Below are positions 20,087 to 63,289 of a stretch of DNA of 64,000 bases, piece by piece. A program made the position numbers and the translations under genes. This stretch comes from Candidatus Microgenomates bacterium (GTDB lineage: Bacteria; Patescibacteriota; Microgenomatia; UBA12405; UBA6130), in the NCBI GenBank assembly GCA_015485895.1, contig WFSR01000012.1, forward strand, positions 3,201 through 67,200. The letters run 5' to 3'. Position 1 is the stretch's first letter; each line of letters starts with the position of its first letter. The notes below the pieces were generated by a model. It saw nothing but the letters and a program-made list of their open reading frames with translations. It was not told the DNA's origin and searched no databases.

Positions 20087-20097
20087 TTTTTTCTGGG

Positions 20098-20169
20098 TGC
20101 CGCCAGTGGGAATCGAACCCGCCTTTTCACCTTGAAAGGGTGATGTCCTAGCCGATAGACGATGGCGGC
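20098..20169 (-). tRNA. tRNA-Glu (anticodon TTC)
   Basis: Reverse complement gccgcca tc gtctatcggctaggac a tcacc cTTTCAAa ggtga ... gcgggttcgattcccac tggcggc a. Anticodon loop cuUUCaa. Glu-like D-arm. There is one A.C mismatch in the T-stem. Confidence 0.7.
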
Positions 20170-23567: not shown

Positions 23568-24881
23568 ATGACTAATTGGTTCCAGTGGTTTAAAAACCAG
23601 TTTTTTCATTTACCCCAGGCGATTTTTGCAAATTGGCGCTACGGTTGGCCTAGTCACCATCTTAATTTTATTGGTGTTACTGGAACCGATGGCAAAACAA
23701 CAACTACGCTTTTAATCTATCATCTCTTGCGTGAAGCGGGTCTAGCATCCGGTTATGTTTCTACAATTGCTGCTCATATTGGTGAGGAACATGAGCCAAC
23801 TGGCCTGCATGTAACTTCACCGCCGCCGGCTAAGTTGCAAAAATGGTTAGCGAGGATGGCTCGGGAACAACCAGATAAATGGGTGGTTCTCGAAGCGACT
23901 TCGCATGGTTTGGATCAATACCGTCTTTGGGGTATCCATTTTCAAAAAGCTGTTTTCACTAATTTAACTCATGAGCATCTTGATTACCACCGAACGATGA
24001 AAAATTATTTCCAAGCAAAAATGCGACTTCTTTGCCATGCTGAGCGCCTTTTTATTAATGGCGATTTAGACCAGAAACTTTTAGTAGATGTTAGAAAGAG
24101 GTGCCGTTCGAAAAAAATTTTCTTTTATGGACGAAAGCGGGATAATATTTGGCAGGTGAGAAATGTTCATCTTGAATTTGGGCGGACGGCGTTTGACCTT
24201 TATTTACATCACCAAAAACAAGGGCACTTCCAAAGTAGATTGACAGGTACTTTTAATCTTTATAATCAAGTTGCTGCTTTAGCGACTGTTTTAGACCAAC
24301 ATTTAGTTTCGATTAACCAAGCTAGAACTGCCTTAGGAACTTTTATCCCGCCCCAGGGACGGATGGAAATTGTTGTTCGAGAACCATTTTTGGTAATGAT
24401 TGATTTTGCCCATACTCCCAATGCTTTGGAACAATTGTTGCGCTCCTTACGTCAATTGCATCCTGGCCGGCTTTTGGTGATTTTTGGCGCTGCTGGTGAG
24501 CGAGATCGGGGAAAACGCCCCTTAATGGGGAAAATTGCTGCTCACTGGGCTGATATTGCCGTTTTAACCTCCGAAGATCCGCGTAGCGAAGATCCTCAGG
24601 CTATTATTAAGACCATTGCTCGGGGTTGCCGGCAGGGAAAAATGTGCCGGGCCAAGAAAAAAGATGCCCGGCTAGTGCAACAGGGAAAAAAGAAAAAGGT
24701 CTTTTTCCAAATCGAAAATCGCCAAGAAGCTATTAATTTTGCTTTGCGCCGTTTAGCGCGGCCGGGAGATTTGGTAGTCCTTTGCGGCAAAGGCCATGAA
24801 CAATCTATTTGTTATGGTCATCAAGAATATCCTTGGTCAGAGCACCAGGCGGTTAAAGTAGCGTTGGGGCAGAAACAATGA
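23568..24881 (+). CDS. murE: UDP-MurNAc-L-Ala-D-Glu:diamino-acid ligase with short N-terminal domain
   Basis: P-loop IGVTGTDGKTTTT. The C-terminal motif IFGAAGERDRGKRPLMGKIAAHWADIAVLTSEDPRSEDP aligns to MurE GCGGDRDKGKRPLMG...TDDNPR.E.P. The N-terminal UDP-binding domain is very short, so 437 aa total. Confidence 0.75.
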   Translation: MTNWFQWFKNQFFHLPQAIFANWRYGWPSHHLNFIGVTGTDGKTTTTLLIYHLLREAGLASGYVSTIAAHIGEEHEPTGLHVTSPPPAKLQKWLARMAREQPDKWVVLEATSHGLDQYRLWGIHFQKAVFTNLTHEHLDYHRTMKNYFQAKMRLLCHAERLFINGDLDQKLLVDVRKRCRSKKIFFYGRKRDNIWQVRNVHLEFGRTAFDLYLHHQKQGHFQSRLTGTFNLYNQVAALATVLDQHLVSINQARTALGTFIPPQGRMEIVVREPFLVMIDFAHTPNALEQLLRSLRQLHPGRLLVIFGAAGERDRGKRPLMGKIAAHWADIAVLTSEDPRSEDPQAIIKTIARGCRQGKMCRAKKKDARLVQQGKKKKVFFQIENRQEAINFALRRLARPGDLVVLCGKGHEQSICYGHQEYPWSEHQAVKVALGQKQ

Positions 24882-25630
24882 GGCTAATCTTTTCGCCTTT
24901 TAAGGCTGATTATTGGAGATACCAGTTTCCTTATCAGGTTTTGCTTTGGCGAGAGGCAGGCGACAGTTTAGCAAAAATTTATGCTTTAGGTTTTTTGCCT
25001 TTTCGCCAGCGCCAAGATTTATTTTATTTAAGTCGGAGCTGTCGGAGCAATCTCCGGCGAGGTCAATTTTCTTCAGAAAATCGGCGAATTTTGGCACGGA
25101 CGAAAGGCTTTCACTTTTCCCTGCAGAAAATTAGCCCTCCTTTGTTGCCGGAAAAACAAAAACTCTTGCGTGATTGGGCTCGGGGAGCAGGCTGGGATAT
25201 TAAAACGCCGACCTTAAAGAAGCTTTGGCAGGGAAAATTTTTTAATTATCAGCTGGTTATTAGCTGGCAAAAGCAACCGGTTAGTTATTCTCTTTTGTTA
25301 GTTCAACCACCTATTGCCCATTGGGCCTATGTCTTTTTAAATCCGGAATACCGTCAAAAAAATTTGGCTATTGCCAGTGGATTATTTCTAATTCGCTGGG
25401 CCCGCCAACAAAATTTAGACTATCTTTATTTGGGAACTTGTTATGGGCGTTTGAATTATAAGCGCAATTTTCCCGGCTTAGAATTTTTTAATGGCCTTTA
25501 TTGGTCGGATAATCAGAAGGAATTGCGCTGGCTTTTGCAAGAAAATTGGTCAGGCTACCTTTGGCAGGATACGGGGTGGCGCCAGAAATTAGAACGGTGG
25601 TTGGCAAAAACAGACAAAGAGAAGGGTTAA
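24878..25630 (+). CDS. Bpt/ATE-like (arginyl/leucyl-tRNA-protein transferase C-terminal-like) protein
   Basis: GTCYGRLNYKRNFPGLEFFNGLYW fits the ATE_C signature G.Y...C.KM.YK..F.P.E......W as I recall it. 250 aa, with start ATG overlapping the murE stop. Confidence 0.35.
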   Translation: MRLIFSPFKADYWRYQFPYQVLLWREAGDSLAKIYALGFLPFRQRQDLFYLSRSCRSNLRRGQFSSENRRILARTKGFHFSLQKISPPLLPEKQKLLRDWARGAGWDIKTPTLKKLWQGKFFNYQLVISWQKQPVSYSLLLVQPPIAHWAYVFLNPEYRQKNLAIASGLFLIRWARQQNLDYLYLGTCYGRLNYKRNFPGLEFFNGLYWSDNQKELRWLLQENWSGYLWQDTGWRQKLERWLAKTDKEKG

Positions 25631-27028
25631 ATGAAGAAAAAGAAAGTTTATATCATTGGGATTGTGGGGACCATTGGTACCGGGTTGGCCCGAGCTTTTA
25701 AGAAAGCAGGGTGGAAGGTTAGCGGGTCGGACCAGGAAAATGTCTTCCCCCCTTTAACAACCGCTCTAGCTCGGGCAAAAATTCCTTTTTATCGGGGTTA
25801 TGCTGCTCATCATGTTCCTCGGGATGCTGATTTGGTTTTGGTAGGCGGCAGCGCTTTGGTAATCGATCGCCACAACCCGGAATATTTGCAGGCGCAAAAA
25901 TATCATTTGCCTATTCTTAACCACGCTGAGGCGATAGCCCGTTTTGTGGTGAAAAAAAATTCTCTGGTAGTGGCTGGTAGTTATGGCAAGACAACAATCA
26001 CTTCTCTGTTGGTAACCATTTTAAAAGAAGCTCACTATCGGCCGGCTTATATGATTGGTGGCTGGCCACTTAACCGTTGGCCATCATTAGCTTTTTCTGA
26101 AAGCAATTGGTCGATAGTGGAGGGTGATGAGTATTGGATTAACCCGGAAAAACCTCAAGCTAAATTTTTTCTTTATCATCCCCATTATCTTTTGCTTACC
26201 GCGGCCCATTGGGAGCACCCTGATGTCTACTCTCGGCCAGAACTGTATTATCAAGCTTTCCAAAAGCTAGTTCGTTTAGTACCTAGCAATGGTTTAGTGG
26301 TAGCCAATTATTTTGGTGAACATTTAGATTTCCTTCGTCATCGGCAACAGGTGGTGTGGTATTCGAGCCAAAAAGGTAAAGGTGATTGCTTCCTGGCAGC
26401 TTGGCAGCCCCGTTCTCAGAGAATGCAAATAACGGTGAATTGCCAGGGCACAAAAGTTCTTTTTCAATCTCCTCTTTTGGGCAAGCATAATGCTGAAAAT
26501 ATTGTTGCGGCAGTGACCATGGCTCATCATCTGGGTATTAGCTGGCCGGTAGTTAGAAAGGCAATTAGTAAAGCTAAAGGGGTAAAAAGGCGGTTAGAAT
26601 ATCAAGGCACTATTGGGGGAATTACGATTTTTGAGGATTTTTCCCAGACTCCACCGCGGATTAAGGCAGCTTTGCAGGCTCTACGAGATCATTTTCCTCA
26701 GCGGCGCATTTTGGTAGTTTTTTATCCCCACTATAGTGGTTGGCGAGATAAATCTATTTTGAGGGGAATAAAAGGGCTTTTCGGTTTGGCTAATAAAGTT
26801 TGGCTGACGCGAGTCCATTTCGACCGCCGGCCGGCAGCGGAAAGGGTAACTGGTCCGTTAATTGCTAAAGCTTTGGGGGGCGCAAATATTGAATATTGTC
26901 CCGATGACCGAATTCTTGAAAAGAAAGTAAAACAAGAACTTCGGCCTGGCGATGTTTTGGTTTTTATGTCTTCGGGCGGTTTGCGGGGTCTAAAAGAAAG
27001 AGTTATTAATTTTCTAGAGCATCGTTAA
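25631..27028 (+). CDS. murC: UDP-N-acetylmuramate:L-alanine ligase (MurC/Mpl type)
   Basis: N-terminus YIIGIVGTIGTGLARAF (cf. MurC HFIGIGGSGMSGLA), P-loop AGSYGKTTITS, EGDEY (cf. MurC EADESD), and GKHNAENIVAAV (cf. G.HNV.NALAA). Confidence 0.7.
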   Translation: MKKKKVYIIGIVGTIGTGLARAFKKAGWKVSGSDQENVFPPLTTALARAKIPFYRGYAAHHVPRDADLVLVGGSALVIDRHNPEYLQAQKYHLPILNHAEAIARFVVKKNSLVVAGSYGKTTITSLLVTILKEAHYRPAYMIGGWPLNRWPSLAFSESNWSIVEGDEYWINPEKPQAKFFLYHPHYLLLTAAHWEHPDVYSRPELYYQAFQKLVRLVPSNGLVVANYFGEHLDFLRHRQQVVWYSSQKGKGDCFLAAWQPRSQRMQITVNCQGTKVLFQSPLLGKHNAENIVAAVTMAHHLGISWPVVRKAISKAKGVKRRLEYQGTIGGITIFEDFSQTPPRIKAALQALRDHFPQRRILVVFYPHYSGWRDKSILRGIKGLFGLANKVWLTRVHFDRRPAAERVTGPLIAKALGGANIEYCPDDRILEKKVKQELRPGDVLVFMSSGGLRGLKERVINFLEHR

Positions 27029-28347
27029 TGGCCCAATTTATTATTCATGGCCAAAAGCCGTTGCGCGGTGAGGTAGTTATTCGGGGAGCTAAAAATTCTG
27101 GTTTTAAATTGCTTATTGCCTCACTTTTTGGGTGTCAAGAGTCACTCTTTAGCAATGTGACCAAAGCTGGAGAAACGAAGATTACCCTTTCTCTTATCAA
27201 ATATTTGGGTGCTAATTTTCATTGGGTAGGCGAGCACAGTGTCTTGGTAGATCCTCGAGGTTTGCAGCATTATCAACTACCGCTAGGGGTAGGCAGAGAA
27301 ACGCGGGCCAGTATTCTTTTCGTTCCAGTTTTACTTTATCGTTTCGGCCGGGTTCGGGTGCCATGGCCGGGGGGTGATAAGATTGGCCGCCGGCCTTTAG
27401 ATCGCCATTTAGCCGGGTTGCAAAAGATGGGAGTTCACATCAAGCAGAGTAAACAATCTTTGGAATTTTTTGCCCCTCACCGCCTAGAGGGAACTCGTTA
27501 TCGCTTTGCTAAAAATACCCACACTGGTACTGATACCCTTTTGATGGCCGCACTTTGGGCCAAAGGAGAAACAGTTTTGGAAAATGCTGCTGCTGAGCCA
27601 GAAGTGGATGATCTTATCCATTTTCTTAATAAACTCGGTGGCCAGGTAAGGCGAATATCTCCACGTACTATCGTTATTCATGGACGACAAAAATTTCGGG
27701 GAGCTGAACATATTGTTATTCCCGATCGTAACGAGGCGGTTACTTTTGCTTGTGCTGCTTTGGGTACTAAAGGTGAGGTAGATATTTTTAATATTAATCC
27801 TAATCATCTTTATGCTTTTATCAAACAGCTGCGGATGATTGGAGCCGGTTTAGAGATTGGTGTTAACGAGATGAAAGTGGCTTGGCGAGAGCACCTGCAT
27901 GCAAGCAAAATAGAGACGGCTCCCTACCCTGGCTTTATGACCGATTGGCAGGCACTATGGGTAGTTTTAATGACCCAGGTGTGGGGGACTAGCGAGGTGA
28001 TAGAAAGGATTTTCCCTTACCGCTTTCAATACGTTCCATATCTCCAAAAAATGGGGGCAAGAGTTAAATTCTTCCAACCTCAGGTAATTAATCCCAAGAA
28101 TTACTATAACTTTAATCTAGAGGATGACCAACCGCAATTTCATCACGGCATTTACATCAGCGGCCCGACTCGCTTAAAAGGGACAACGATGACCGTCAAC
28201 GATATTCGTGCTGGGGCTACTCTTACTTTAGCGGCCTTAATGGCTAAAGGCAAAAGTGTTTTGCGGCGAGCTGAAAAAATAGATCGTGGTTATGAACACT
28301 TGGCTAGCAGGCTTCAACAGTTAGGAGGTGACATTATTAGGATATGA
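27028..28347 (+). CDS. murA: UDP-N-acetylglucosamine 1-carboxyvinyltransferase
   Basis: [34 protein letters not shown] is the classic MurA N-terminus. 439 aa with the EPSP-synthase-like fold. Confidence 0.9.
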
Positions 28348-29612
28348 TAATTACTTTAAAAAATGATCTCCTCTTTTACTCCCATCTTCCACTTTGGAAG
28401 CGTTTCTATCATCTAGGGGAAAGATATTTAGCTAAATTATGGTCACAGTTACATCGCCCCCGGGCTGTGGTGATGATAACCGGTAGCTATGGTAAAACCT
28501 CAACAACTTACATTTTAAGCAGAACCCTGGATAAAGCTGGTGGATCCTTGGTAACTGATCGTAATCTTGACACCATCTTCAATCTGCCACAGACTATTCT
28601 TCGTTGGCGCTGGCCACCGTGGATTGTTTTGGAAACAGGGATTGATCATCCTCAAGAAATGGATTTTCATCTCCGTCTCATTAAGCCAACGGTGGTAATT
28701 TTTACCGGGATAACACCTGTTCATGCCGATAAGCAATTGTTGGGATCCAAAATAGGGATTTGGCGAGAGAAAACCAAATTAGTTCGGGCTCTACCAACTG
28801 ACGGTCTGCTTATTTATAATGCTGATGACCTTCTAGCTTGCCGGGCGGCCCGAATTTTTTCTGGTGAGAAAAGAAGCTATTCTCTGAAGCAGAAACATGG
28901 AGATTATTGGCTAGCTAAGAGTAAAATTACCCCTCAGGGGAGCCAGTTTTGGTTAACTACTGCTTTTTCACGGCAGCAAGTAAAAATAAAAACGCCTCTT
29001 TTAGGCAAACATTTTGCCCAATCATTTTTAGCTACGCTGGCCTTTTTGGATTTCTACCATTTGTCGCGATCGCTTTTAGTTAATGCCGCTAGTCAGCTTA
29101 AACCTTTACCAGGGCGTTTATCGTTACAACCTTTTCTCAATGGTAGTTGGCTTTTGGATGATAGCCGGCGCTCTAACCCGGCGTCGGCTAAAGCTGGTCT
29201 AGCCTTAATCACCACCTTAAGATCACACTATCGGCGCCTTATTGTGGTTATGGGGGAGATGGGAGAATTAGGCCGTTATGCTCGGCAGGAACACCGGCGG
29301 CTCGGGCGACAACTGGCTAAATTAAAACCGGATATTTTGATTGGCATTGGTCCTTTAATGCGGCTAGCTCTTAAGGAGGCCCCGGGATTAACTAGTCTTT
29401 GGGCTGATAATCCCACCACCGCTGGCGAACTATTTTTGCAGAAATATTCCCCTCAGGAAGGCGATCTTTTTTATCTCAAAGCTTCTCTTTTGCGCCATCT
29501 GGAACGATTCCGTTATGTGCTAGAGGGAAGGCAAGTTGCCTGCCGGCGACCCGCTTGCCATTATTATCACGATTGCTCGCAATGCGATAAACTGAATGAA
29601 GAAAGGGGGTGA
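28344..29612 (+). CDS. murF: UDP-MurNAc-tripeptide:D-Ala-D-Ala ligase with Cys-rich C-terminal tail
   Basis: P-loop VVMITGSYGKTSTT and LDDSRRSNPASAKAGL (cf. MurF DDSYNANP.SM.AAL). A C-terminal extra segment ACRRPACHYYHDCSQCDKL carries 5 Cys. Confidence 0.7.
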   Translation: MIITLKNDLLFYSHLPLWKRFYHLGERYLAKLWSQLHRPRAVVMITGSYGKTSTTYILSRTLDKAGGSLVTDRNLDTIFNLPQTILRWRWPPWIVLETGIDHPQEMDFHLRLIKPTVVIFTGITPVHADKQLLGSKIGIWREKTKLVRALPTDGLLIYNADDLLACRAARIFSGEKRSYSLKQKHGDYWLAKSKITPQGSQFWLTTAFSRQQVKIKTPLLGKHFAQSFLATLAFLDFYHLSRSLLVNAASQLKPLPGRLSLQPFLNGSWLLDDSRRSNPASAKAGLALITTLRSHYRRLIVVMGEMGELGRYARQEHRRLGRQLAKLKPDILIGIGPLMRLALKEAPGLTSLWADNPTTAGELFLQKYSPQEGDLFYLKASLLRHLERFRYVLEGRQVACRRPACHYYHDCSQCDKLNEERG

Positions 29613-29618: not shown

Positions 29619-29876
29619 ATGCCACCACTTGATTTAAATGACGCTCTAGCGATGGGCGACAAAGAAAAAAATTTGGCCCGGGCTCGGCAATCACTGATCG
29701 AAGAGCTAGACGCGATTAATCTTTATGAAGAACGGATTCAGGCCACTCAAGATGAAGAATTGAAAAAAGTGCTAGCTCACAACCGAGATGAAGAAAAAGA
29801 ACACGCTGCAATGCTTATTGACTATTTACGCCGCCACGATCCTGTTTTTAAGCGGATGTTTACAGAGCACGATTAA
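29619..29876 (+). CDS. small ferritin-like (ExxH half-site) protein
   Basis: 85 aa, predicted helical. EELDAINLYEERI...DEEKEHAAMLIDYL contains an E...ExxH pattern like ferritin-like/rubrerythrin half sites. Last gene before repeat copy C. Confidence 0.3.
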   Translation: MPPLDLNDALAMGDKEKNLARARQSLIEELDAINLYEERIQATQDEELKKVLAHNRDEEKEHAAMLIDYLRRHDPVFKRMFTEHD

Positions 29877-30300: not shown

Positions 30301-31338
30301 ATGGAATTTATTTACTTAGGCTTAGTATTGTTCTCTTTCTTCGTTAACTCTCTCCTTTTTATTCCTTTTATAAATTTACTTTATCGTTGGCATTTTGTCC
30401 GCCGCCGACAAATTACCCGTGATTTCCAAAATAAAAGGGCAATTATTTTCGATAAGTTGCATGCTCATAAGGCCGGCACTCCGGTAGGAGGAGGGCTCCT
30501 CATGCTAGTAACTATTTTAAGTCTTCAATTTGTTCTCCTTCCGGTTTTAAAAATATACGACCGCCAAAACTTCTATAGTGCTTACCGTTTTATTGACGAA
30601 GCTAACATTGTTTTTTTTACAATGATTTCCTTTGGTGCGTTAGGTTTTTACGATGACATTATGAAATTTTTCGGTTTTGAGAAGAGTGGCTTTTTTGGTC
30701 TCCGGATGCGTCATAAGTTCATCCTCCAATGGGCTCTAGCTTTTATTATTGCGGCAATGCTCTATTTCAACTTAGGGATTAATTTTATCTATCTTCCTTT
30801 TTACCATGTAATTCATTTGGGATACGGTTATATTTTATTGGCGGCTACCCTAATTGTTTGGTTGGCAAATGCTTTTAATATTACCGATGGCCTCGACGGG
30901 CTATCAAGCGGTTTGCTTTTGATCTTTTTGCTTACTTTTTGGGTTATTTCCTCCCAAGTGTTTGATACCTTTTTAGGGGTTTTCATTGCTCTCTGGGTAG
31001 GTGCAGTTTTAGCTTTTCTCTATTTCAACATTGCCCCTGCTCGTCTCACATTAGGTGATATTGGTGCCTTAGCTTTCGGGGCTACTATTGCCGTGGTTGG
31101 TCTCTTAACAGGGAAGATCTTGGCAGTTCTAATAGTAGGTGCAATTTTTAACCTTGAGGGGCTTTCAAGCTTTCTACAAATTATCAGTAAAGCCTGGCGT
31201 CATCGGAAGTTATTCCCTGCAGCTCCGCTTCATCTTTGGTTACAATATCGAGGTTGGCCGGAAACCAAAATTGTTATGAGGACTTGGGTGGTGGGCATAG
31301 TTTTTGCCATTTTAGGCCTCTGGCTTTCTTTCCTTTAA
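30301..31338 (+). CDS. mraY: phospho-N-acetylmuramoyl-pentapeptide transferase
   Basis: NAFNITDGLDGLSSGL (MraY DDxxD-equivalent motif), about 10 TM helices, and a GALAFG...LGD segment. Confidence 0.9.
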   Translation: MEFIYLGLVLFSFFVNSLLFIPFINLLYRWHFVRRRQITRDFQNKRAIIFDKLHAHKAGTPVGGGLLMLVTILSLQFVLLPVLKIYDRQNFYSAYRFIDEANIVFFTMISFGALGFYDDIMKFFGFEKSGFFGLRMRHKFILQWALAFIIAAMLYFNLGINFIYLPFYHVIHLGYGYILLAATLIVWLANAFNITDGLDGLSSGLLLIFLLTFWVISSQVFDTFLGVFIALWVGAVLAFLYFNIAPARLTLGDIGALAFGATIAVVGLLTGKILAVLIVGAIFNLEGLSSFLQIISKAWRHRKLFPAAPLHLWLQYRGWPETKIVMRTWVVGIVFAILGLWLSFL

Positions 31339-31563
31339 TTATTTTTCCTCTTCAAGAATAGCAGTTTTAAAAGGTTTAAGGGAAGTTATCTCTAATTCTG
31401 TTCCACAGTATTGACATTCCACAATATCTCCCACAGCTACGGTGCTCAGATCGATAGTAATAGGGTGATGGCAGTCAGGGCACTTGATAGTTTTTTTCAT
31501 TTTACATTTTAGGCTATAATACTTTAATGGTTGTATTTTAGCAATGAAATTTTTGAAAAGCAA
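31339..31563 (-). CDS. LysW-like zinc-ribbon protein (putative amino-group carrier protein)
   Basis: MKKTIKCPDCHHPITIDLSTVAVGDIVECQYCGTELEITSLKPF fits the LysW pattern CP.C...(n)..GE(I/V).EC..CGAELE(V/I).SL.P. The C-terminal tail is acidic (AILEEEK) but lacks the canonical EDWGE end. 74 aa. Confidence 0.45.
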   Translation of the reverse strand: MLFKNFIAKIQPLKYYSLKCKMKKTIKCPDCHHPITIDLSTVAVGDIVECQYCGTELEITSLKPFKTAILEEEK

Positions 31564-32377
31564 GAAAACTTCTCTAATTTTTTACCATGGTTTTTATTTA
31601 AAAAGAGAAGACCAACAATTATCGGGTTCAGTGAAAGATAGGGGAATAGTTGAGCAGTTGCGCCACCTTCCTAAAACTACCAATGAGGTAGTGATTAGCT
31701 CCTCGGGAAATGCGGGAATTAGCCTGGCTTTTTGGAGCCAGCGGTTAGGCTTAACGGCACACGTTTTTGTCAGCCCTAACCTTTCTCCAGGAAAGAAAAA
31801 ATATCTCCAAGAATTGGGAGCTAAGCTTTATGTTACCCCTCGACCTTTGAGTGGAAGTATTCGTTTTGCTCGCCGGTATAATTTTCCCCATCTACGTCAG
31901 TCTATTAGTTCTTGGGCGAGGTACGGTTTTCAATCTTTAGGAGAAGAATTAAAAATGGAAATTAATCCCGAAGTGATTTTTTTCCCAGTGAGCAGCGGGA
32001 CCACTCTTTTGGGAGTTAGCGATATTTGGAGAAGTACTAAGAAGAAGCCTGTTTTTGTGCTGGTTCAAACGGCTGGCCATTGCCCTCTGGCGCGCCATTT
32101 AGTGTCTTGTCCACCAGCAGAACCGAATGATTTAGCTACTGCTTTAGTCGCTAGGTATATTCCTAATGAGAGAGAGATTCTAGCTCTAATTAAAAAGTAT
32201 GGCCAGGCGGTGGTAGTTACTAATACAGAAATTATGGAGGCTTGGCGATGGCTAAAGCAAGGGGGAATAATTACTTCTTTTGAGGGGGCTGCTGCCGTAG
32301 CTGCAGCTCGGCAAATAAAAGCTGATCAACATTGGCAGCGATCAGTTTGCTTGCTAACGGGTAAGTATTATGGTTAA
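31544..32377 (+). CDS. PLP-dependent enzyme, fold type II (Trp-synthase-beta/Cys-synthase/Thr-synthase superfamily)
   Basis: REDQQLSGSVKDRG is the PLP-lysine motif (S/T)GS(F/V)KDRG. VISSSGNAGISLAF is the glycine-rich loop. SFEGAAAVAAARQ is the C-terminal EPSSAAA-like motif. At 277 aa it is a minimal version. Confidence 0.65.
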   Translation: MKFLKSKKTSLIFYHGFYLKREDQQLSGSVKDRGIVEQLRHLPKTTNEVVISSSGNAGISLAFWSQRLGLTAHVFVSPNLSPGKKKYLQELGAKLYVTPRPLSGSIRFARRYNFPHLRQSISSWARYGFQSLGEELKMEINPEVIFFPVSSGTTLLGVSDIWRSTKKKPVFVLVQTAGHCPLARHLVSCPPAEPNDLATALVARYIPNEREILALIKKYGQAVVVTNTEIMEAWRWLKQGGIITSFEGAAAVAAARQIKADQHWQRSVCLLTGKYYG

Positions 32378-33677
32378 TCTCCGGGCCCCGATTTTCTATT
32401 TAGGAATGGATTTTTATCAAGGTTTACCTGGTTTCTGGTTTTTTCCTAATTATTACTTAATAACTTATCGCGCCCATCCGGTTATTAAGAAATTACCTTT
32501 TGCTAACCGCATCTTTACTCTCGGCGACAAAACAACTAAAGTTATTCCCCGCAGTAGCGGGCATTTGCTTAACCATCCCTTGGTACAGAAATTTATCATC
32601 CGCCATACGCGGGGAGATAAAGTATTTTTAACTTTCTTTAAGCCAAGTAGAAAGATAGAGATTATTGCCCAGAAAAAAGGCTGGCGATTAATTGGAAATC
32701 GCCAGGCGTTGGCGAAAAGATTAGAAAATAAAATTCAACTCTGGCAGTTATTGCATCGGTACCCGGAGGTGCATTTTCCACCGGTTCAGGTGGAAAAGCT
32801 AGGAGGATTGAATTATCGGGTCCTGGCGCAACAATATAAGGGATGCTTTGTCCTACAGTTAGGGCTTGGTTGGGCAGGTCGTTCAACTTTTAAGGTATGT
32901 TCCGCAAAAGAATTTGTACGATTACAGCAAAAATACCCTAAACAATGGGTAAAGATAACGCCATTCTTTTTAGGGTGGACGCTTACTAACAATAATGTAG
33001 TAACCCCAACAGGAGAAGTTTATTCTTCTTATCTGGCTTGGCAAATTACCGGCCAGAAGATGTTATGTCCAGGTTTACCAATGGCAACTTGCGGTCGGGT
33101 ATGGGCAGTGTCGCCGGGTAAGCAGCTGGAAAATAATGCTAAAAAAATTAGCCAATTCATCGGCTTTTGGTTACATAAGCAAGGATTTCGGGGTTTTTTT
33201 GGTCTTGATTTTTTGCTTACTTCAAACGGCCAACTTTATTTCCAAGAGCTAAATCCTCGCCTAACGGCCTCGGCAGCGTTTAGTGCTTTAAGTGAGTTGA
33301 AGCAAAAGCTTAGGCCATTGTTGTTTTATCACTATGCTAGTTTCTTACCTTTAAAGGTGAAAAATCAGTGGCAGAGATCTAAATTGCAAGGGGGCGAAAT
33401 AGTCTCAAGGGCTCCTTCTCAACGAATTATTAAAAAAAGTGTCGCAAGTGGCGCTTATAATTTTCAAAAACAATACCTGGGAGCTCATTTCTTTCCTTCG
33501 CAGGAATGGATCACTTTTATAGGGGGTTATCGAGGGGAAAAAATTTATTCCGGCAGTGAGGTTTTTCGCCTTTCCGGTTGGGGTAAATTAGGCGAGTGGC
33601 AAGGTCAAAATTTTCGGCTTGCCTCGCCTTACCGTAATTTTTATTATTGGATAAAACAATATTATGGAAAAGCGTAA
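32370..33677 (+). CDS. ATP-grasp family ligase of unknown specificity (LysX/RimK-like or divergent D-Ala-D-X ligase-like)
   Basis: The C-terminal region GFFGLDFLLTSNGQLYFQELNPRLTAS matches the ATP-grasp G(R).DF......G.....E.N..P(G) block, comparable to Ddl GRVDFFL..DG.LYLNEINT.PG. The central KVCSAKEF is a candidate ATP-binding Lys region. 435 aa. Confidence 0.5.
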   Translation: MVNLRAPIFYLGMDFYQGLPGFWFFPNYYLITYRAHPVIKKLPFANRIFTLGDKTTKVIPRSSGHLLNHPLVQKFIIRHTRGDKVFLTFFKPSRKIEIIAQKKGWRLIGNRQALAKRLENKIQLWQLLHRYPEVHFPPVQVEKLGGLNYRVLAQQYKGCFVLQLGLGWAGRSTFKVCSAKEFVRLQQKYPKQWVKITPFFLGWTLTNNNVVTPTGEVYSSYLAWQITGQKMLCPGLPMATCGRVWAVSPGKQLENNAKKISQFIGFWLHKQGFRGFFGLDFLLTSNGQLYFQELNPRLTASAAFSALSELKQKLRPLLFYHYASFLPLKVKNQWQRSKLQGGEIVSRAPSQRIIKKSVASGAYNFQKQYLGAHFFPSQEWITFIGGYRGEKIYSGSEVFRLSGWGKLGEWQGQNFRLASPYRNFYYWIKQYYGKA

Positions 33678-34743
33678 TCAAAAACTTATCAAATGGTTGT
33701 TACTTTTTTTAGCCTTATTTGCCATTTTAGGCATTTTTTTCATTGGCGATATCTCTCTAGCGGAAGCACGCTTGCATTTTCACGATTCTCTCTATTTCGT
33801 CAAAAGGCAAACATTTTGGCTAGTTTTAAGTTTAATTACTCTTGGTTTACTTTGGCAGTTGCCGGTGACATTTTGGCGGCGAGCAAGCTTAATTTTTTAT
33901 CTGCTAAGTGTACTCGGTTTAGGTCTGGTGCTTATTCCGGGGATAGGCAAGGAAATTTGGGGTGCGCACCGTTGGTTAGCTATTGGCTCTCTAGCATTTC
34001 AGCCAGCAGAATTAATGAAGCTTGCCTTTTTGCTTTATCTTAGCATTCTTTTATCGAGGCAAGGTAAAATATCGCTAAAAGTTTTTCTTTCTATCCTTTT
34101 ATTGCCAATCGCCTTAATAGCTTTAGAACCAGATTTAGGCACGATTATAATCTTGGTAAGCTTAGCGGGAGCAATGTATTTTGTAGCGGGTGTTCGTTGG
34201 CACCTTTTCATAATATTATTATTTTTAAGCCTTACCGCTGGGGGCATTTTCATCTTTAGTTCCTCCTATCGTCGTCAACGGCTTCAGGGCTTTTTTGATC
34301 CCTTTGCGGACCCTTTAAATAAAACTTATCATGCTTACCAGTTGGTTTTAACTTTACACCGCGGTGGCTTCTGGGGTAGTGGTTTGGGCCAGTCACGACA
34401 GAAATACCAAAACCTTCCCCAGGTAACCACAGATTCTATTCTGGCCGTTATTGGAGAGGAAATAGGTTTTGCAGGTTTGACAGTTATTCTAATACTTTAC
34501 CTTTTGGGCATTTATTTGATATTTTTCCTTGCTGCTAAATCCAATAATCCGTTAACTTATTATTACGGTGTGGGTTTTGGTAGCTGGCTAGCTACGCAAG
34601 GATTTTTAAACGCTGGGGCAGTGGCGATTGTATTACCTTTTACCGGAGTGCCATTCCCCCTAATTTCTTATGGAGGATCATCTCTGGTATCTATTGTATT
34701 AGGGGTGGGATTATTTCTTAAATTTTTAACTACCACCACATGA
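33664..34743 (+). CDS. ftsW: SEDS-family peptidoglycan glycosyltransferase (FtsW position)
   Basis: About 10 TM helices. The C-terminal PFPLISYGGSSLVSIVLGVGL is the SEDS signature. Located between the ATP-grasp gene and murG. Confidence 0.8.
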   Translation: MEKRNQKLIKWLLLFLALFAILGIFFIGDISLAEARLHFHDSLYFVKRQTFWLVLSLITLGLLWQLPVTFWRRASLIFYLLSVLGLGLVLIPGIGKEIWGAHRWLAIGSLAFQPAELMKLAFLLYLSILLSRQGKISLKVFLSILLLPIALIALEPDLGTIIILVSLAGAMYFVAGVRWHLFIILLFLSLTAGGIFIFSSSYRRQRLQGFFDPFADPLNKTYHAYQLVLTLHRGGFWGSGLGQSRQKYQNLPQVTTDSILAVIGEEIGFAGLTVILILYLLGIYLIFFLAAKSNNPLTYYYGVGFGSWLATQGFLNAGAVAIVLPFTGVPFPLISYGGSSLVSIVLGVGLFLKFLTTTT

Positions 34744-35849
34744 AAAAAGCAATCTTGGTAGGCGGACATTCTACCCCAGCCTTAGCTCTTTTACAAGAAT
34801 TGCAAAAGCGGTTTTGGCAGATATATTATTTCGGTAGCAAGTATACCTCCTTACAAAATGCCCGTTTACTTTCTTATGAATATAGGGTACTTAGAGAAAG
34901 GGAAAATGTTTTCTTTGTTCCTCTACCAGCTCGCGGTTGGCCTAGATCATTGTCTTGGCAATCATTTAAAGCCGGTTGGGCCTTCCAGCAGAGTTTTTTT
35001 AAGGCATTTTTAGCTATGTTGCGATTGCGCCCTAATGTGGTAGTTGGTTTTGGTGGATATCTTACCCCTCCGGTGGCATTAGCCGCTGCTCTCTTAAGAA
35101 TTCCTCTAATTCTACATGAACAAACTACTACTTTGGGGCTGGGCAATAGAATTGCCTTACCATGGGCAAAAAAGGTGGCTTTATCTTTTCCGATAATAGG
35201 AGAACAACTGCCTTCGCAGAAAGTAGTTTTAACTGGCAATTTACTTCGTGAGGAAACAATGATAGTAAAGGAATCGTTAGTGAGCAGGACTTTGTTACTT
35301 TATCGCAATAAGCCTATCCTTTATCTTACTGGAGGCAAAACGGGTTCAGTGGCATTAAATAATTTTTTGGCTCGAGAACTGAGTAATATTTTACCTTCTT
35401 ATTACGTGATTCACCAAGCTGGTGAACTTAGTTACCAGCACTTTCTTGATTTACGGCGATCTCTTCCCAATCGTTGGCGCCAACGTTATTTGGTGGCGGC
35501 GACCTTCCCAGCCGCTGATGTTGGTTGGATTTTATCTAAGGCTAAGTTAGTAATCGCACGATCGGGCGCTAATACCGTAAGCGAACTCATTTGGTGGCGC
35601 CGTCGAGCTATCTTGATCCCATTACCGATCTCTATAGCTGGCGAACAAGAAAAAAACGCCCGTTTTTTAGCTGGTTTAGGTTTGGGCGTGCTAATTTCCC
35701 AAAAACAGCTGGCTAATATCCATTGGTCTGTTTTGGAACAAAAAGTAGAGCAGCTAAAGCCTCGAAGGAAGGATATTGCTAAACAACGTCATCTTCTAGC
35801 CACCAGCAGGCAAAAGTTAGCTGCTTTGGTAACAAAATGGGGACATTAA
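34740..35849 (+). CDS. murG: UDP-GlcNAc:lipid I GlcNAc transferase
   Basis: N-terminus ILVGGHSTPALALLQEL (cf. GGTGGH.FPALA). GT28 C-terminal domain with ARSGANTVSELI. 369 aa. Confidence 0.75.
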   Translation: MKKAILVGGHSTPALALLQELQKRFWQIYYFGSKYTSLQNARLLSYEYRVLRERENVFFVPLPARGWPRSLSWQSFKAGWAFQQSFFKAFLAMLRLRPNVVVGFGGYLTPPVALAAALLRIPLILHEQTTTLGLGNRIALPWAKKVALSFPIIGEQLPSQKVVLTGNLLREETMIVKESLVSRTLLLYRNKPILYLTGGKTGSVALNNFLARELSNILPSYYVIHQAGELSYQHFLDLRRSLPNRWRQRYLVAATFPAADVGWILSKAKLVIARSGANTVSELIWWRRRAILIPLPISIAGEQEKNARFLAGLGLGVLISQKQLANIHWSVLEQKVEQLKPRRKDIAKQRHLLATSRQKLAALVTKWGH

Positions 35850-36214
35850 AACAACGGGACATTATCTTATTTCTTCTGGCCATTTTAATCATTTTATTTT
35901 TAGCAAGTTTACAACTTTCTTCTCGACAAATTACCAAAAATATTCTTCCTAAACGCCAGCAAGTAGCTGACAATATTGACGCCTTTTTTATTAGTAATGG
36001 GATCAATTTCCGGGGACCATTTTTTATCGAGCCTCACGGGATTCGCTACATTCTTACTGAAGGAATAAACGTTCTTTTTGATGTTAAAAAGGATATCGTT
36101 GCCCAGGAACAAGCTTTACAAGTTATTCTCAAAAAGGTTAAAATGACAAGAAGGAGGGTGAGGTTAATTGACTTAATGCCAGATAAACCGCATGTTGTAT
36201 TCAAAAATTATTAG
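35837..36214 (+). CDS. short FtsQ/DivIB-like bitopic protein
   Basis: 125 aa with one N-terminal TM helix, then a small beta-rich domain, and a C-terminal VRLIDLMPDKPHVV resembling the FtsQ C-terminal strand. Located at the ftsQ position before ftsA. Confidence 0.35.
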   Translation: MGTLKQRDIILFLLAILIILFLASLQLSSRQITKNILPKRQQVADNIDAFFISNGINFRGPFFIEPHGIRYILTEGINVLFDVKKDIVAQEQALQVILKKVKMTRRRVRLIDLMPDKPHVVFKNY

Positions 36215-38608: not shown

Positions 38609-39649
38609 ATGAATAATTTTTTTTCTTCGCTTTCTTCAGGCAAAGTTTTGGTATTTTTCTTAATTTTCATTATGGCTGGTCTGAATTTGTTTACTCTCTG
38701 GACACTTAAAGCTAATGCTAGCACCCAACTACTTTTTTGGATACTTGGACTGACGGTTTTTTTCTTTCTTATTTTCTGGCGGCCATCATTATCGTCTTGG
38801 CGGAAATTTGACTGGCTTATTTACTTGAGTATAGTAATATCATTGCTCTTGCCCCTTTTTTGGGGGCAAACCATTAGAGGAGCTCGCCGTTGGCTTCATC
38901 TGGGTATTTTCTCAATTCAGGTATCGGAAATAGTAAAACCATTTTTTATTCTTTCTTTTGTTTCCTTGATAGAAAGGGGCAAAAAATGGACGGTCGGTTT
39001 TCTGGTGCTATTACCACTCCCGGTAATTTTTTTGCTTTTGAAGGAACCAGATTTTGGAAGTGCCATCCTTTATCTTAGTTTAGTTTTTTTCTTAGCTCTT
39101 TTGTATTATTGGCGGCAGAGAAAATTCTGGGTAGCGCTTGGCGGTGGCGTTTTACTCTTTTTTCTCTTGTTACCTTATTTACTTTCTCCTTATCAAAAAC
39201 AGCGTTGGAATACTTTTCTTCATCCCGGTAGTGATCCTTTAGGAGCTGGCTATAATACTCTCCAGGCAAAAGTCAATATAGGGTCGGGCCGCATTTTGGG
39301 CCATGGCCTCTGGCATTTAAAACAGGAATTACAGTTTCTCCCTGAGGCTCATACAGATTTTATCTTTGCTAGTTGGGCTCACGCTACCGGTTTTGCTGGG
39401 GTGATTTTTATCTTATCTCTCTATACCATCCTCTTTTGGACCTTGGGGCAAAAAGTTTTAGCTACCAAAACTGAATGGGTGTTCATTTTTCGCTTTCTAT
39501 TATTGGCACAGCTTTGGTTGCAAACGCTGGTTAATTTAGGGATGAACTTAGGAATTTTGCCAGTTACCGGATTGCCATTGCCATTTTTTTCTTATGGAGG
39601 ATCTTCGTTACTCGCCAGTATTCTAGCGCTTGCCTTTATTTTGCTTTAG
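38609..39649 (+). CDS. second SEDS-family protein (RodA-like)
   Basis: 10 TM helices with C-terminal PLPFFSYGGSSLLASILALAFIL. Paralogous to the ftsW-position gene. Confidence 0.75.
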   Translation: MNNFFSSLSSGKVLVFFLIFIMAGLNLFTLWTLKANASTQLLFWILGLTVFFFLIFWRPSLSSWRKFDWLIYLSIVISLLLPLFWGQTIRGARRWLHLGIFSIQVSEIVKPFFILSFVSLIERGKKWTVGFLVLLPLPVIFLLLKEPDFGSAILYLSLVFFLALLYYWRQRKFWVALGGGVLLFFLLLPYLLSPYQKQRWNTFLHPGSDPLGAGYNTLQAKVNIGSGRILGHGLWHLKQELQFLPEAHTDFIFASWAHATGFAGVIFILSLYTILFWTLGQKVLATKTEWVFIFRFLLLAQLWLQTLVNLGMNLGILPVTGLPLPFFSYGGSSLLASILALAFILL

Positions 39650-41710: not shown

Positions 41711-42826
41711 ATGAAAGTGGCAATAGTCCGAGGGGCTTTCTCAGGCCCTTGGGAATTGCAAAACTATTATACCCTAAAGGAGAAAGATGTTTTTCTAAAG
41801 GTTTTTACTAGCCAGTGGCCTTTAGACTCCCATTTTGAGCTACCGCAACAACATCTCTGGTCGCCGGTAGATTTGCCCTCCTTCCCCTATAAAATGCCAA
41901 TTTTAAACCGTCTTATAGGAGATGCTCATTATCTTTGGGGATTAGAAAAGCAGTTATATAATTTTGACATTGCCCATACTGCTGAGACTTACTATTACTA
42001 TACCCAACAATGTTTAAAGGCTAAAAAGCGGGGTTGGGTAAAGAAGGTTATAAGCACTGTTTGGGAGACTATTCCTTTCAATAATGAACAGATATGGCGG
42101 CGGAGGGCGTTTAAATATCGTGCCTCTCAGGAAATTGATCTTTTTTTAGCACCAACCCAACGGGCAGCTCGGGCTTTGAAAAAAGAAGGAGTTGCCACCC
42201 ACAAAATTAAAGTTTTACCAATGGGAGTAGGCCAAGTGTTTTTCACTCAAAAAATAAAACCTCAGAGGAAAATCGCTACCCATCTCCTTTTCGTAGGAAG
42301 ATTGGTCAAGGAGAAAGGCATTTGGGATTTACTTCAGAGTTTCAAGCGTTTACAAAAAGATGGGTTAAAATTAAAGCTGTTACTAGTTGGCCAAGGGCCA
42401 GAAAGGAAAAGAATCACTGCCTGGATTAAGGCTAACGGGTTTTCTCGGTTTGTTAAAATTAAGAAAGTGGAATATCGACGAATGCCAAAAGTGTACCGTT
42501 GGGCTGACATTTTTATTTTACCCTCAATTCATACACAATATTGGGAAGAACAATATGGTATGGCAGCGGTGGAAGCTTTAGCTAGTGGACTGCCAGTAGT
42601 GGTTAGTGATTCAGGGGCCTTGCCAGAAGTAGTTGGTCCGGCTGGTATAGTAGTACCAGAGAGTAATCCTAGCATTCTTGCCAAAACCCTTTATCAATTG
42701 GCAACTGACTCTCAGCGACGCAATGATTTGGGCGTTTTAGCTTACCAGTGGGCTAGAAAAAGATACTTTGCCCCTACAGTGGCTGCAAAAATTTTAGATA
42801 TTTATACCACGCTTTTACGTGAGTAA
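41711..42826 (+). CDS. GT4-family glycosyltransferase
   Basis: EEQYGMAAVEALASGLPVVVSDSGALPEVVG is the EX7E motif. LLFVGRLVKEKG is a typical GT4 motif. Confidence 0.7.
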   Translation: MKVAIVRGAFSGPWELQNYYTLKEKDVFLKVFTSQWPLDSHFELPQQHLWSPVDLPSFPYKMPILNRLIGDAHYLWGLEKQLYNFDIAHTAETYYYYTQQCLKAKKRGWVKKVISTVWETIPFNNEQIWRRRAFKYRASQEIDLFLAPTQRAARALKKEGVATHKIKVLPMGVGQVFFTQKIKPQRKIATHLLFVGRLVKEKGIWDLLQSFKRLQKDGLKLKLLLVGQGPERKRITAWIKANGFSRFVKIKKVEYRRMPKVYRWADIFILPSIHTQYWEEQYGMAAVEALASGLPVVVSDSGALPEVVGPAGIVVPESNPSILAKTLYQLATDSQRRNDLGVLAYQWARKRYFAPTVAAKILDIYTTLLRE

Positions 42827-43805
42827 GCTAGCAATTCAACGGAATATGCCGTTAGCTCCTTATACTACCCTTAAAATTGGGGGGCCAGCTGATTACTTGC
42901 TGGATGCCTACTCATTTTCAGAATTACAACATGCTTTAGCGTGGGCTTTAAAAAAGAATTTACCCTGGTATATTTTGGGTGGGGGGAGTAATGTGCTAAT
43001 TAGCGATCGAGGGATAAGAGGTCTAGTTATTATCAATTGCATCAAGGGATGGCAGGTCATTTCATCCACATCGGCTCAAAAACCTGATATGGGCATTGCT
43101 AGTCGTTGGCACAATACTTTTACTCTAAAACCTCCACAACGCGGTAAAGGAATTATAATTGAAGTGGCAACAGGCACTGATTTAAAAACCTTCCTTTTTC
43201 AGTTAGCGGAAAATCAGATCACCGGTTTAGAATGGTTTGCTGGTATCCCGGGAACTATTGGAGGGGCAATAAAAAACAACATTCACGGTGGCCCTGATTT
43301 TTTTAGCCAATACCTACTAGGGGTGCAAATATGGCAGCGAAATAGAATAGAAAATTATTCCTTGCGTCGGGAAGATTTTGATTATGATAGTTCTCCTTTT
43401 GACTCGCAAACTGTGCTTTTAAAGGCAAAGTTATTGCTTTTCCAAGCTGAAGATAAGCGCGGCAAATTGTTTTTGCAGGAGTGGGGAAAAGCAAAATTAC
43501 AAAACCAACCTCAAAATTCTGCCGGGTGTATTTTTCAAAATTTATCAGCTAAAGAACAAAAATGGCTCCATTTACCCAGCTCGAGTTGGGGCTATATTAT
43601 TGATAAAGTTTTACATTTAAAGGGCCAACAAATTGGTGGTGCTCAAATTTCTCATCGGCATGCGGCTTTTATTGTTAATGCCAACGGCAAGGCCCGGGCC
43701 CAAGACATTTTAGCCTTGATTGCTTTAATTAAAGAAAAAAGCAGACGGGTTTTGGGAGTAGAGCCTCGTTTAGAAATTCAGCTTTTAGGCTTCAATGGAA
43801 AATAA
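42819..43805 (+). CDS. murB: UDP-N-acetylenolpyruvoylglucosamine reductase
   Basis: MPLAPYTTLKIGGPADYL FAD-binding N-terminus. GGGSNVLI.D motif. 328 aa. Confidence 0.85.
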   Translation: MSKLAIQRNMPLAPYTTLKIGGPADYLLDAYSFSELQHALAWALKKNLPWYILGGGSNVLISDRGIRGLVIINCIKGWQVISSTSAQKPDMGIASRWHNTFTLKPPQRGKGIIIEVATGTDLKTFLFQLAENQITGLEWFAGIPGTIGGAIKNNIHGGPDFFSQYLLGVQIWQRNRIENYSLRREDFDYDSSPFDSQTVLLKAKLLLFQAEDKRGKLFLQEWGKAKLQNQPQNSAGCIFQNLSAKEQKWLHLPSSSWGYIIDKVLHLKGQQIGGAQISHRHAAFIVNANGKARAQDILALIALIKEKSRRVLGVEPRLEIQLLGFNGK

Positions 43806-49168: not shown

Positions 49169-49203
49169 AAGGCAGGTGCTCTGCCAGCTGAGCTACGGGC
49201 GCA
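49130..49203 (-). tRNA. tRNA-Lys (anticodon TTT)
   Basis: Reverse complement gcgcccg tagctcagctggcagagc acctgc cTTTTAAg cagagggtc gggggttcgaatccctc cgggcgc a. Anticodon loop cuUUUaa. Paralog of the CTT copy at 63603. Confidence 0.8.
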
Positions 49204-58652: not shown

Positions 58653-58660
58653 AACTACGG

Positions 58661-58734
58661 TGTCCCCGGGGGGATTCGGACCCTCGACCTTCCCGTTAGA
58701 AGCGGGACGCTCTTTCCGACTGAGCTACGGGGAC
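58661..58734 (-). tRNA. tRNA-Arg (anticodon TCT)
   Basis: Reverse complement gtccccg ta gctcagtcggaaagagc g tcccg cTTCTAAc ggga aggtc gagggtccgaatccccc cggggac a. Anticodon loop cuUCUaa. Confidence 0.8.
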
Positions 58735-58739
58735 TTGGG

Positions 58740-58813
58740 GGTGGCTGGAGGGAATCGAACCCTCAACCCTCCGCTCCACAGGCGGATGCTCTGCCAATTG
58801 AGCTACAGCCACC
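58740..58813 (-). tRNA. tRNA-His (anticodon GTG)
   Basis: Reverse complement g gtggctg ta gctcaattggcagagc a tccgc cTGTGGAg cgga gg gttgagggttcgattccctc cagccac c. It has the extra 5' G(-1) and C73 characteristic of tRNA-His. Confidence 0.8.
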
Positions 58814-58817
58814 ATGG

Positions 58818-58890: not shown

Positions 58891-58891
58891 G

Positions 58892-61994: not shown

Positions 61995-63289
<1,295 letters not shown>

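Follow-up and report, generated by a model that had tools for sequence, protein, structure and literature searches.

A tRNA-transferase-fold gene paired with an Mpl-like ligase in the cell-wall cluster of Candidatus Microgenomates: a possible bypass of MurC and MurD

Introduction

Residues 1 and 2 of the peptidoglycan stem peptide are added by MurC and MurD, which to our knowledge count as universal and essential in wall synthesis and are both antibiotic targets. Likewise, we know of no established role for aminoacyl-tRNA in wall synthesis other than the Fem-type side branch. Here we analyze a stretch of 64,000 nucleotides from a Candidatus Microgenomates bacterium (GenBank assembly GCA_015485895.1, contig WFSR01000012.1, positions 3,201 to 67,200 of the forward strand; hereafter the window), an organism of the candidate phyla radiation (CPR). 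Directly 3' of murE it carries a gene, here called X (24878-25630, + strand), for a divergent ATE1/Bpt-fold protein of 250 residues, a putative aminoacyl-tRNA-dependent transferase. X is followed by a ligase resembling Mpl, and the usual place of murD is taken by a trio of genes. With somewhat less than even confidence, we favor a reading in which X and the ligase act as a pair in a non-canonical route to stem-peptide residues 1 and 2 that replaces MurC and MurD.

Several described systems resemble parts of this arrangement. FemX and the FemABX and MurM enzymes form a peptide bond on a cell-wall precursor using aminoacyl-tRNA. They belong to the same superfamily as X, possess an equivalent catalytic lysine and are likewise encoded among cell-wall genes, and tRNA use would be a further common trait. 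They differ in having two GNAT domains. Bpt and ATE1, known from protein N-degron marking, have the same overall fold as X, and Bpt is of similar length; the genomic context of X is peptidoglycan synthesis rather than ClpS/Aat. Mpl loads the peptide L-Ala-gamma-D-Glu-diaminopimelate, and the loading of a preformed peptide onto uridine diphosphate-N-acetylmuramic acid (UDP-MurNAc) that we propose for the ligase would parallel this use. The Mpl-like ligase of the window differs in lying in the murC slot of a division and cell wall (dcw) cluster and not in a recycling locus. The LysW/LysX system, finally, shares with the trio a small LysW-fold zinc ribbon, whose C-terminal tail is acidic, and an adjoining ATP-grasp gene.

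More distant parallels come from other non-canonical routes. The MurD2/MurL route of Xanthomonas sets a precedent for installing residue 2 in an unusual way; it retains MurC and a MurD paralogue and works without a tRNA-dependent enzyme, a carrier protein or an Mpl-like ligase. The tRNA-dependent peptide synthases PacB and DhpH of secondary metabolism, and similarly Sba18/Sbb17, are Fem-like and not ATE-like, and they are encoded in natural-product clusters and not with core wall synthesis. In the literature searched we found no description of an ATE/Bpt-like gene in a dcw cluster, of an Mpl-like ligase replacing MurC, or of a LysW-like module replacing MurD.

A divergent ATE1/Bpt-fold protein coupled to murE

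The ATG of X (24878) overlaps the murE stop codon TGA (24879-24881) within caATGAgg; at the other end, no nucleotide separates the TAA of X from the ATG that opens the next gene (25631). The same ATGA overlap is found in six related loci and is usually kept in CPR loci. X is thus translationally coupled into the Mur operon, as an earlier note on this DNA had proposed from the overlapping start codon. That note had also seen in the protein a C-terminal signature of arginyl- and leucyl-tRNA-protein transferases. The motif, GTCYGRLNYKRNFPGLEFFNGLYW, lies at residues 186-209, and profile comparisons bear the assignment out. Pfam ATE_C (PF04377) matches X with an E-value of 5.7e-5 and 24.2 bits, just missing its gathering score of 25, and the same match is precomputed for several X homologues. 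Six NCBIfam arginyltransferase models match with E-values from 7e-6 to 5e-3.

Profile-to-sequence alignment with hhalign strengthens the connection. A canonical Bpt, validated against NCBIfam (423.7 bits, cutoff 246), aligned with the X-family profile at 89.5% probability and an E-value of 2e-6 over 174 columns, residues 29-199 of X being collinear with 40-221 of Bpt. Yeast ATE1, whose reference sequence was validated against the PDB, aligned across the GNAT core with an E-value of 2.9e-5. Taken together, these results show a likeness of X to ATE/Bpt well beyond chance. Of the profiles that the earlier note had named for such a check, ATE_C gives its borderline match, while ATE_N (PF04376), Leu_Phe_trans and FemAB (PF02388) gave no Pfam match to X at E ≤ 1.

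The predicted structure points to the same family. From the alignment of the family we obtained a confident AlphaFold2 model (predicted local distance difference test, pLDDT, 86; predicted template modelling score, pTM, 0.85). It has human, yeast and Kluyveromyces lactis ATE1 as its best Foldseek matches, with E-values of about 4e-8, and superposes on ATE1 over 227 residues as against about 166 on FemX. The model consists of one GNAT domain plus an N-terminal domain and presents the overall ATE1 core fold. The proposed ATE1/Bpt aminoacyl-tRNA transferase fold is therefore well founded. The accompanying description of ATE/Bpt as a tandem GNAT fold like that of FemX was wrong, since ATE1 has one GNAT fold and an N-terminal domain (PMC9351520).

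The conservation of individual residues informs us on which parts of the ATE1/Bpt machinery are retained. We mapped the key ATE1 residues from the study of the K. lactis Ate1 structure, in which Y303-K304 corresponds to F304-K305 of FemX, the latter containing the catalytic lysine (PMC9351520). The equivalent pair, Y215-K216 in Bpt, is kept as Y194-K195 in X and is invariant in 24 sequences. Also invariant is R69-R70 (SSENRR) in the basic helix of ATE1/Bpt, which follows an S-x-x-x-R-R segment and is the helix that binds tRNA in the aminoacyl-tRNA transferase superfamily; the YLG motif of Bpt/ATE1 is retained as well. On the acceptor side, the GFRRSG motif, whose second arginine (R80 in the K. 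lactis enzyme) binds the acidic N-terminal side chain, is replaced by GFLP(F/Y), with the invariant L40-P41 standing in for R51-R52 of Bpt. The Cys4 metal site is lost too: Cys62, Cys65 and Cys68 of Bpt correspond to Q46, F49 and S52, and Cys18 is unaligned. The donor side-chain pocket (A168/A185/Q189/L201 in Bpt, S255/S273/E277/Y289 in ATE1) is uncharged in X, where it reads W149/S167/L171/L183, and the bulky aromatic at its first position may suit a donor whose side chain is small.

Taken as a protein, X adds a new variant to the aminoacyl-tRNA transferase superfamily. Judged from its sequence, it stands outside the curated Bpt/ATE family, with a different acceptor site, and its fold, basic helix and catalytic lysine indicate that it probably works as an aminoacyl-tRNA transferase. 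Two simpler identities have to be weighed against this assignment. Firstly, X could be a GNAT N-acyltransferase that uses acyl-CoA and acts on a cell-wall precursor independently of tRNA. Pfam Acetyltransf_1 scores 19.3 bits, below its cutoff of 20.7, and PDB sequence and profile searches with X and its family returned either nothing or a generic GNAT protein only, the profile matching the acetyltransferase 3d8p at 1.5e-4. Since the next-best matches are all aminoacyl-tRNA transferases, and the Tyr-Lys pair and basic helix typical of these enzymes are invariant, we regard an acyl-CoA enzyme as improbable.

Secondly, the weak arginyltransferase matches, together with JGI labels that name two distant homologues arginyl or leucyl transferases, might suggest an ordinary Bpt of the N-degron pathway. 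This is very improbable. The best NCBIfam arginyltransferase score is 25.7 bits, roughly ten-fold short of cutoffs of 170-267, so that every curated threshold is missed; a match to ATE_N is missing, and so are the metal site and the arginine pair that binds acidic residues. Moreover, the coupled synteny with Mur ligases is kept over homologues of 34-86% identity, which would not be expected by chance.

In an indexed protein search the family is genuine yet small, with 24 members; an exhaustive search with the family profile found 963 clusters at E < 1e-3, of which 181 lie at E < 1e-30. One protein of 809 residues (P0099) carries the X-family domain fused to PPDK_N and PEP-utilizer (phosphotransfer) domains.

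An Mpl-like ligase as the constant partner of X

The gene following X (25631-27028, + strand, 465 residues) starts directly after its TAA. It reaches 246.8 bits against the murC model TIGR01082 (cutoff 335.1) and 207.2 bits against the mpl model TIGR01081 (cutoff 388.7) and so fails both equivalog thresholds. With BLASTP it aligns over its full length with E. coli Mpl (185 bits, 28% identity) and partially with E. coli MurC (82 bits). The ligases of related clusters with the window's layout behave similarly, with 242-246 bits on the murC model and 189-242 on the mpl model, whereas the MurC of canonical sister clusters passes at 409 bits (408.9). All 33 ligases found beside X or in clusters of that layout miss the MurC threshold, and each is closer by score to E. 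coli Mpl (mean 169 bits) than to E. coli MurC (mean 107); for the nine ligases of the canonical layout the order is reversed (MurC 216, Mpl 154).

Comparison with described motifs (PMC3060825) shows that GSDxxVYPP and DEY, both features of the Mpl type, are retained in the ligase. The substrate-binding domain at its C-terminus is unlike that of either family, with DFAHHP changed to DFSQ(T/S)xPR and EPRSNT to PHYSG. Sequence comparison hence points to a MurC/Mpl-family ligase that is not a bona fide MurC. Where the earlier note had placed X between murE and murC, the first neighbor stands and the second has to be replaced by this Mpl-like enzyme.

To follow the pair through related genomes we combined homologue look-ups with a contig scan of species-representative genomes, using a profile made from the CPR subset of X. 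Within CPR, X lies directly 3' of murE and directly 5' of the same ligase in Shapirobacteria, Woesebacteria, WWE3, Microgenomates ADurb.Bin219 and several mislabelled metagenome-assembled genomes, at 34-86% identity; the nearest relatives, at 86%, come from assemblies of Candidatus Shapirobacteria. The conservation in dcw clusters of relatives that the earlier note had asked about is thus found, and together with the ATE-type profile and fold matches it leaves that identification of X standing.

Some 30 distinct loci of CPR have the ligase immediately after X, including places where X does not adjoin murE. The latter is the case in one genome (loci L002 and L019), where the X-ligase pair lies apart from murE and outside the dcw cluster. 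Because the pair persists away from murE, the link between X and the ligase is the most conserved one. The surroundings of the pair in L002 (1-7000) comprise genes for a beta-lactamase-fold protein, an M15 peptidase, a DUF218 protein, two glycosyltransferases of family GT2 and a MurA fused to a helix-turn-helix domain.

Two mutually exclusive cluster layouts

The dcw-type cluster of the window starts with mraZ (20229, + strand), followed by rsmH, ftsL and ftsI. To compare it with relatives we scanned metagenome contigs by alignment to its MraY (30301-31338, + strand; Pfam Glycos_transf_4) and collected 80 loci with MraY proteins 54-62% identical to it. Their open reading frames (ORFs) were classified against the window proteins and E. 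coli MurC, MurD, Mpl and Ddl. Two layouts emerged. Type A, the canonical one, reads ftsI-murE-(pgeF)-murC-murA-(ddl)-murF-mraY-murD-ftsW-murG-ftsA-ftsZ. Type B, that of the window, reads ftsI-murE-X-Mpl-like-murA-(ddl)-murF-mraY-LysW-like(-)-PALP-ATP-grasp-ftsW-murG-ftsA-ftsZ, the LysW-like gene being on the opposite strand.

Among the 80 loci, 43 are of type A and 21 of type B, with both sides of the cluster visible in 10 and 15, respectively. All ten fully visible type-A clusters contain murC and murD, while all 15 fully visible type-B clusters contain X/Mpl-like and the trio and are devoid of any other Mur-ligase-family ORF at these positions. Genuinely mixed clusters were not found; the single "mixed" call was a 20-bit match at a contig edge. 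The two classes hold up against curated models, with type-A MurD at 386 bits (cutoff 212) and type-A MurC above its threshold as given earlier. The window as a whole holds murA, murB, murE, murF, mraY, murG and two ftsW/rodA genes. Neither murC nor murD was found in its 64 kb or within the ±10 kb fetched around mraY of type-B relatives, and among the ORFs of the window and of the CPR loci that were fetched around X, none has MurD as its best match. A MurD gene does occur at L141, a locus fetched around a homologue of the ATP-grasp protein.

The canonical layout also tells us something about the slot that X occupies. Several type-A clusters encode PgeF between murE and murC (TIGR00726, 154 bits, cutoff 141; for example L072 3506-4249 and L064 3620-4336). 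PgeF is the peptidoglycan editing factor that acts on residue 1, and its position is exactly that taken by X in type B, which ties the slot to the first ligase. Since X and the Mpl-like ligase sit where pgeF and murC do, and only in murD-less clusters that bear the trio, the first two stem residues are implicated and not a side branch on residue 3.

Such a side branch was the function first suggested for X, namely a tRNA-dependent branching or modification of the stem peptide. In its Fem-like form, X would aminoacylate the side-chain amine of residue 3 in UDP-MurNAc-peptide or lipid II, the ligase would be the MurC of this lineage, and murD would lie elsewhere or be replaced by the ATP-grasp protein. 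The transferase fold with a catalytic lysine in common with FemX (PMC9351520) agrees with this, as does the overlap with the murE stop in most loci, which would make the MurE product a possible substrate, and of the two models, murC does give the ligase a slightly better score than mpl. However, X follows the ligase rather than murE, as the pair in L002/L019 demonstrates, and has never been added to a canonical murC/murD cluster. It also has no match to the FemAB family and no second GNAT domain, and the ligase misses a MurC threshold that its counterpart from sister lineages passes. The transferase part of the suggestion is therefore supported, while branching fits the comparative data less well, with X and the ligase replacing pgeF-murC, and we judge it unlikely.

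MurE and MurF, the ligases common to both layouts, show peculiarities of their own. The MurE of the window (23568-24881, + strand, 437 residues) aligns to E. coli MurE and matches TIGR01085 with 387.5 bits starting at model position 72, so that domain 1 is missing. It carries EDPR instead of DNPR (LTSEDPRSEDP at residue 336), as the earlier note had seen and taken as a possible hint of non-standard third-position chemistry. The motif is real, but the hint did not hold: the short MurE and EDPR are present in type A and type B alike, and being equally common in related clusters without X they are uninformative about it. Both are lineage traits unlinked to X. For the same reason we rejected the idea that they mark a free-peptide pathway, as both occur in canonical clusters too. 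MurF (28344-29612, + strand, 422 residues) similarly lacks its N-terminal domain, matching TIGR01143 with 166 bits from model position 64. One Woesebacteria locus (L025, 2367-6001) has two tandem murE genes 5' of X, one full-length and one without domain 1.

The evolutionary history of the two layouts was approached with a neighbor-joining tree of concatenated MurF, MraY, FtsW and MurG (1432 columns, 100 bootstraps). The tree largely splits A from B at 55% bootstrap, with one type-A locus nested in the type-B clade at 67%. Multiple independent layout switches, hinted at by a tree of MraY alone, are not supported by the four-protein bootstrap tree.

A LysW-like, PLP and ATP-grasp trio in the murD slot

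Between mraY and ftsW the window carries three genes that are kept in type-B clusters wherever the region is visible. The first (31339-31500, - strand) encodes a LysW-like zinc-ribbon protein of probably 53 residues, starting with MKKTIKCPDC and ending in ILEEEK; mechanically, its ORF extends to 31563. It scores 38.9 bits against Zn_ribbon_LysW (PF21344), above the cutoff of 27, and 32.3 bits against TIGR01206, where the cutoff is 53.2. Its homologues comprise 50-60 residues with a CxxC...CxxC pattern, and at the end of their tail 18 of 20 loci have EEEK or EEK, the other two EEKG. This terminal lysine sets them apart from true LysW, which ends in glutamate (EDWGE).

The second gene (31544-32377, + strand) encodes a threonine-synthase-like enzyme of fold type II that depends on pyridoxal 5'-phosphate (PLP). 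It matches Pfam PALP with an E-value of 5e-43 and NCBIfam threonine synthase models with about 91 bits, under their cutoffs. A relative matches the threonine synthase structure 6cgq (1.9e-19), and serine racemases are found among its more distant kin. The third gene (32370-33677, + strand) encodes an ATP-grasp ligase-like protein of 435 residues that, with the two preceding genes, fills the usual murD slot. Its AlphaFold2 model (pLDDT 94) has three domains, and Foldseek returned only generic biotin-carboxylase/PurK-type matches with template modelling scores of about 0.6. Compared with the LysW/LysX system, the ATP-grasp protein belongs to a type other than LysX/RimK, it is partnered by a threonine-synthase-like PLP enzyme and encoded in the murD slot, and LysZ, LysY, LysJ and LysK homologues are absent.

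NlpC/P60 enzymes typically cleave bonds between gamma-D-Glu and a diamino acid. Some homologues of the ATP-grasp protein are fused to an NlpC/P60 domain, and a Peregrinibacteria-like locus (L141, 132-4805) encodes in succession MurD (228.5 bits, cutoff 212), a LysW-like protein, a PALP enzyme and such an ATP-grasp-NlpC/P60 fusion. A separate NlpC/P60 gene was found neither in the window nor in the type-B loci. With a true MurD adjoining and the ATP-grasp protein fused to NlpC/P60, this locus ties the trio to the MurD/D-Glu step. Speculatively, the fusion suggests a tether between the gamma-carboxyl of Glu and the terminal lysine of the carrier. The PLP enzyme could then act on the tethered Glu, for instance by epimerization, before its release or hand-over.

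Outside CPR, homologues with about 30% identity to X occur in Verrucomicrobia and other phyla (L027-L057) and do not lie near Mur genes. About one third of these loci have, on the same strand, a PurD-like ATP-grasp gene, a bona fide alanine racemase gene and then the X homologue (for example L050 4842-5987 and L051 3590-4858). These verrucomicrobial operons show that the pairing of the X family with an ATP-grasp ligase and a PLP enzyme of amino-acid metabolism recurs; sequence similarity between the two ATP-grasp proteins, that of CPR and that of Verrucomicrobia, is undetectable.

A reading that puts more weight on the trio has X acting within the carrier module on a different acceptor, for instance the epsilon-amine of the lysine that ends the LysW-like protein, or else some unusual amino acid that the PLP enzyme makes, with a product that enters peptidoglycan other than through the L-Ala-D-Glu bond. 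X occurs with the full trio in 11 of 13 X-bearing type-B clusters, the contig ending before the trio is complete in the other two (L083, L120), and ATE/Bpt enzymes do act on proteins. The conserved tail of the carrier and the recurrence of the X family with ATP-grasp and PLP enzymes and in the PPDK_N fusion point the same way. Set against this, X adjoins the ligase while the trio is encoded some 6 kb away, the X-ligase pair of L002 has no visible trio within 7 kb, and the trio of L141 has no visible X. On balance, we consider this reading rather unlikely.

A proposed route around MurC and MurD

The replacement of MurC and MurD that we favor can be formulated as a sequence of steps. The trio would prepare residue 2, D-Glu or an analogue, perhaps tethered to the C-terminal lysine of the carrier. 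X would move a small amino acid, probably L-Ala, from tRNA to the alpha-amine of this residue, either free or bound to the carrier, and the Mpl-like ligase would attach the preformed peptide to UDP-MurNAc. MurE, MurF, MraY and MurG might then act as usual, MurE and MurF being orthologous in both layouts. The route supposes that murC and murD are also absent from the remainder of the genome.

Several observations weigh against this route. The replacement of R80 of the K. lactis enzyme by Leu-Pro means that pocket conservation does not support an acidic acceptor for X. With its murC-model score slightly above its mpl-model score, the ligase may yet be an enzyme that adds free L-Ala. In L141 a true MurD is encoded alongside the trio, which is thus not itself a MurD replacement. 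In L010 and L011, and at a Dojkabacteria locus (L033), X has no Mur neighbor, and in L010 and all non-CPR homologues the ligase is absent beside it. No conserved dedicated tRNA gene was found in the clusters compared, and among the genes considered we identified none for an enzyme that would release the carrier-tethered product.

A second group of such points concerns the genomic evidence. The absence of murC and murD covers the 64-kb window and about 10 kb on each side of mraY in relatives, and three loci (L082, L084 and L092) show neither layout at these positions, so that the genes can lie elsewhere. Furthermore, the split between A and B follows phylogeny, and the co-variation of the genes may reflect only one or two events. 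The argument consequently rests on the in-situ displacement and on the long retention of the five genes over deep evolutionary distances and in several CPR classes.

Other features of the window

The remaining genes of the cluster follow the expected order. The Mpl-like ligase gene is followed by murA (27028-28347, + strand; Pfam EPSP_synthase, E-value 1e-69). Between murF and mraY lies a gene for an EncFtn-like (encapsulated-ferritin-like) protein of 85 residues (29619-29876), seen only here and in the nearest relative, L013. The trio is followed by ftsW and murG (33664-35849, + strand; Pfam FTSW_RODA_SPOVE and Glyco_transf_28), a 125-residue ORF without Pfam match (35837-36214), ftsA and ftsZ. 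A second FtsW/RodA paralogue (38609-39649) is found directly 3' of ftsZ, and murB (42819-43805) is surrounded by genes of the GT4, GT2 and Wzy_C (O-antigen-ligase-like) families (41711-45607).

Just 5' of mraZ the window carries a tRNA-Glu(UUC) gene (20096-20169, - strand), a feature shared only with L013. Further tRNA genes form arrays at 58659-58975 and 63215-63676, and the 3' end of a PolX-type (DNA polymerase beta-like) ORF (47345-49202) overlaps a tRNA-Lys gene on the opposite strand.

Implications for wall synthesis in CPR bacteria

In many CPR genomes the places of murC and murD are thus held by a conserved set of five genes, which encode the ATE-like transferase, the Mpl-like ligase, the LysW-like protein, the PLP enzyme and the ATP-grasp enzyme. 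Provided that the bypass is real, such a layout would amount to a second, novel way of initiating the stem peptide. In its most far-reaching form, which we hold to be doubtful at present, the proposal is that a widespread group of CPR bacteria, comprising Shapirobacteria, Woesebacteria, WWE3 and relatives, builds its stem peptide without MurC and MurD: the ATP-grasp ligase and the PLP enzyme would prepare and perhaps epimerize residue 2 on the terminal lysine of a LysW-like carrier, X would add residue 1 from aminoacyl-tRNA, and the Mpl-like ligase would load the product. If true, it would be the first case in which the stem peptide itself is made in a tRNA-dependent and carrier-assisted manner. 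A functional X would extend the ATE/Bpt family past protein N-degron marking, and a functional route would be relevant to the question of how ultra-small symbionts, whose amino-acid metabolism is minimal, acquire D-Glu and construct their walls.

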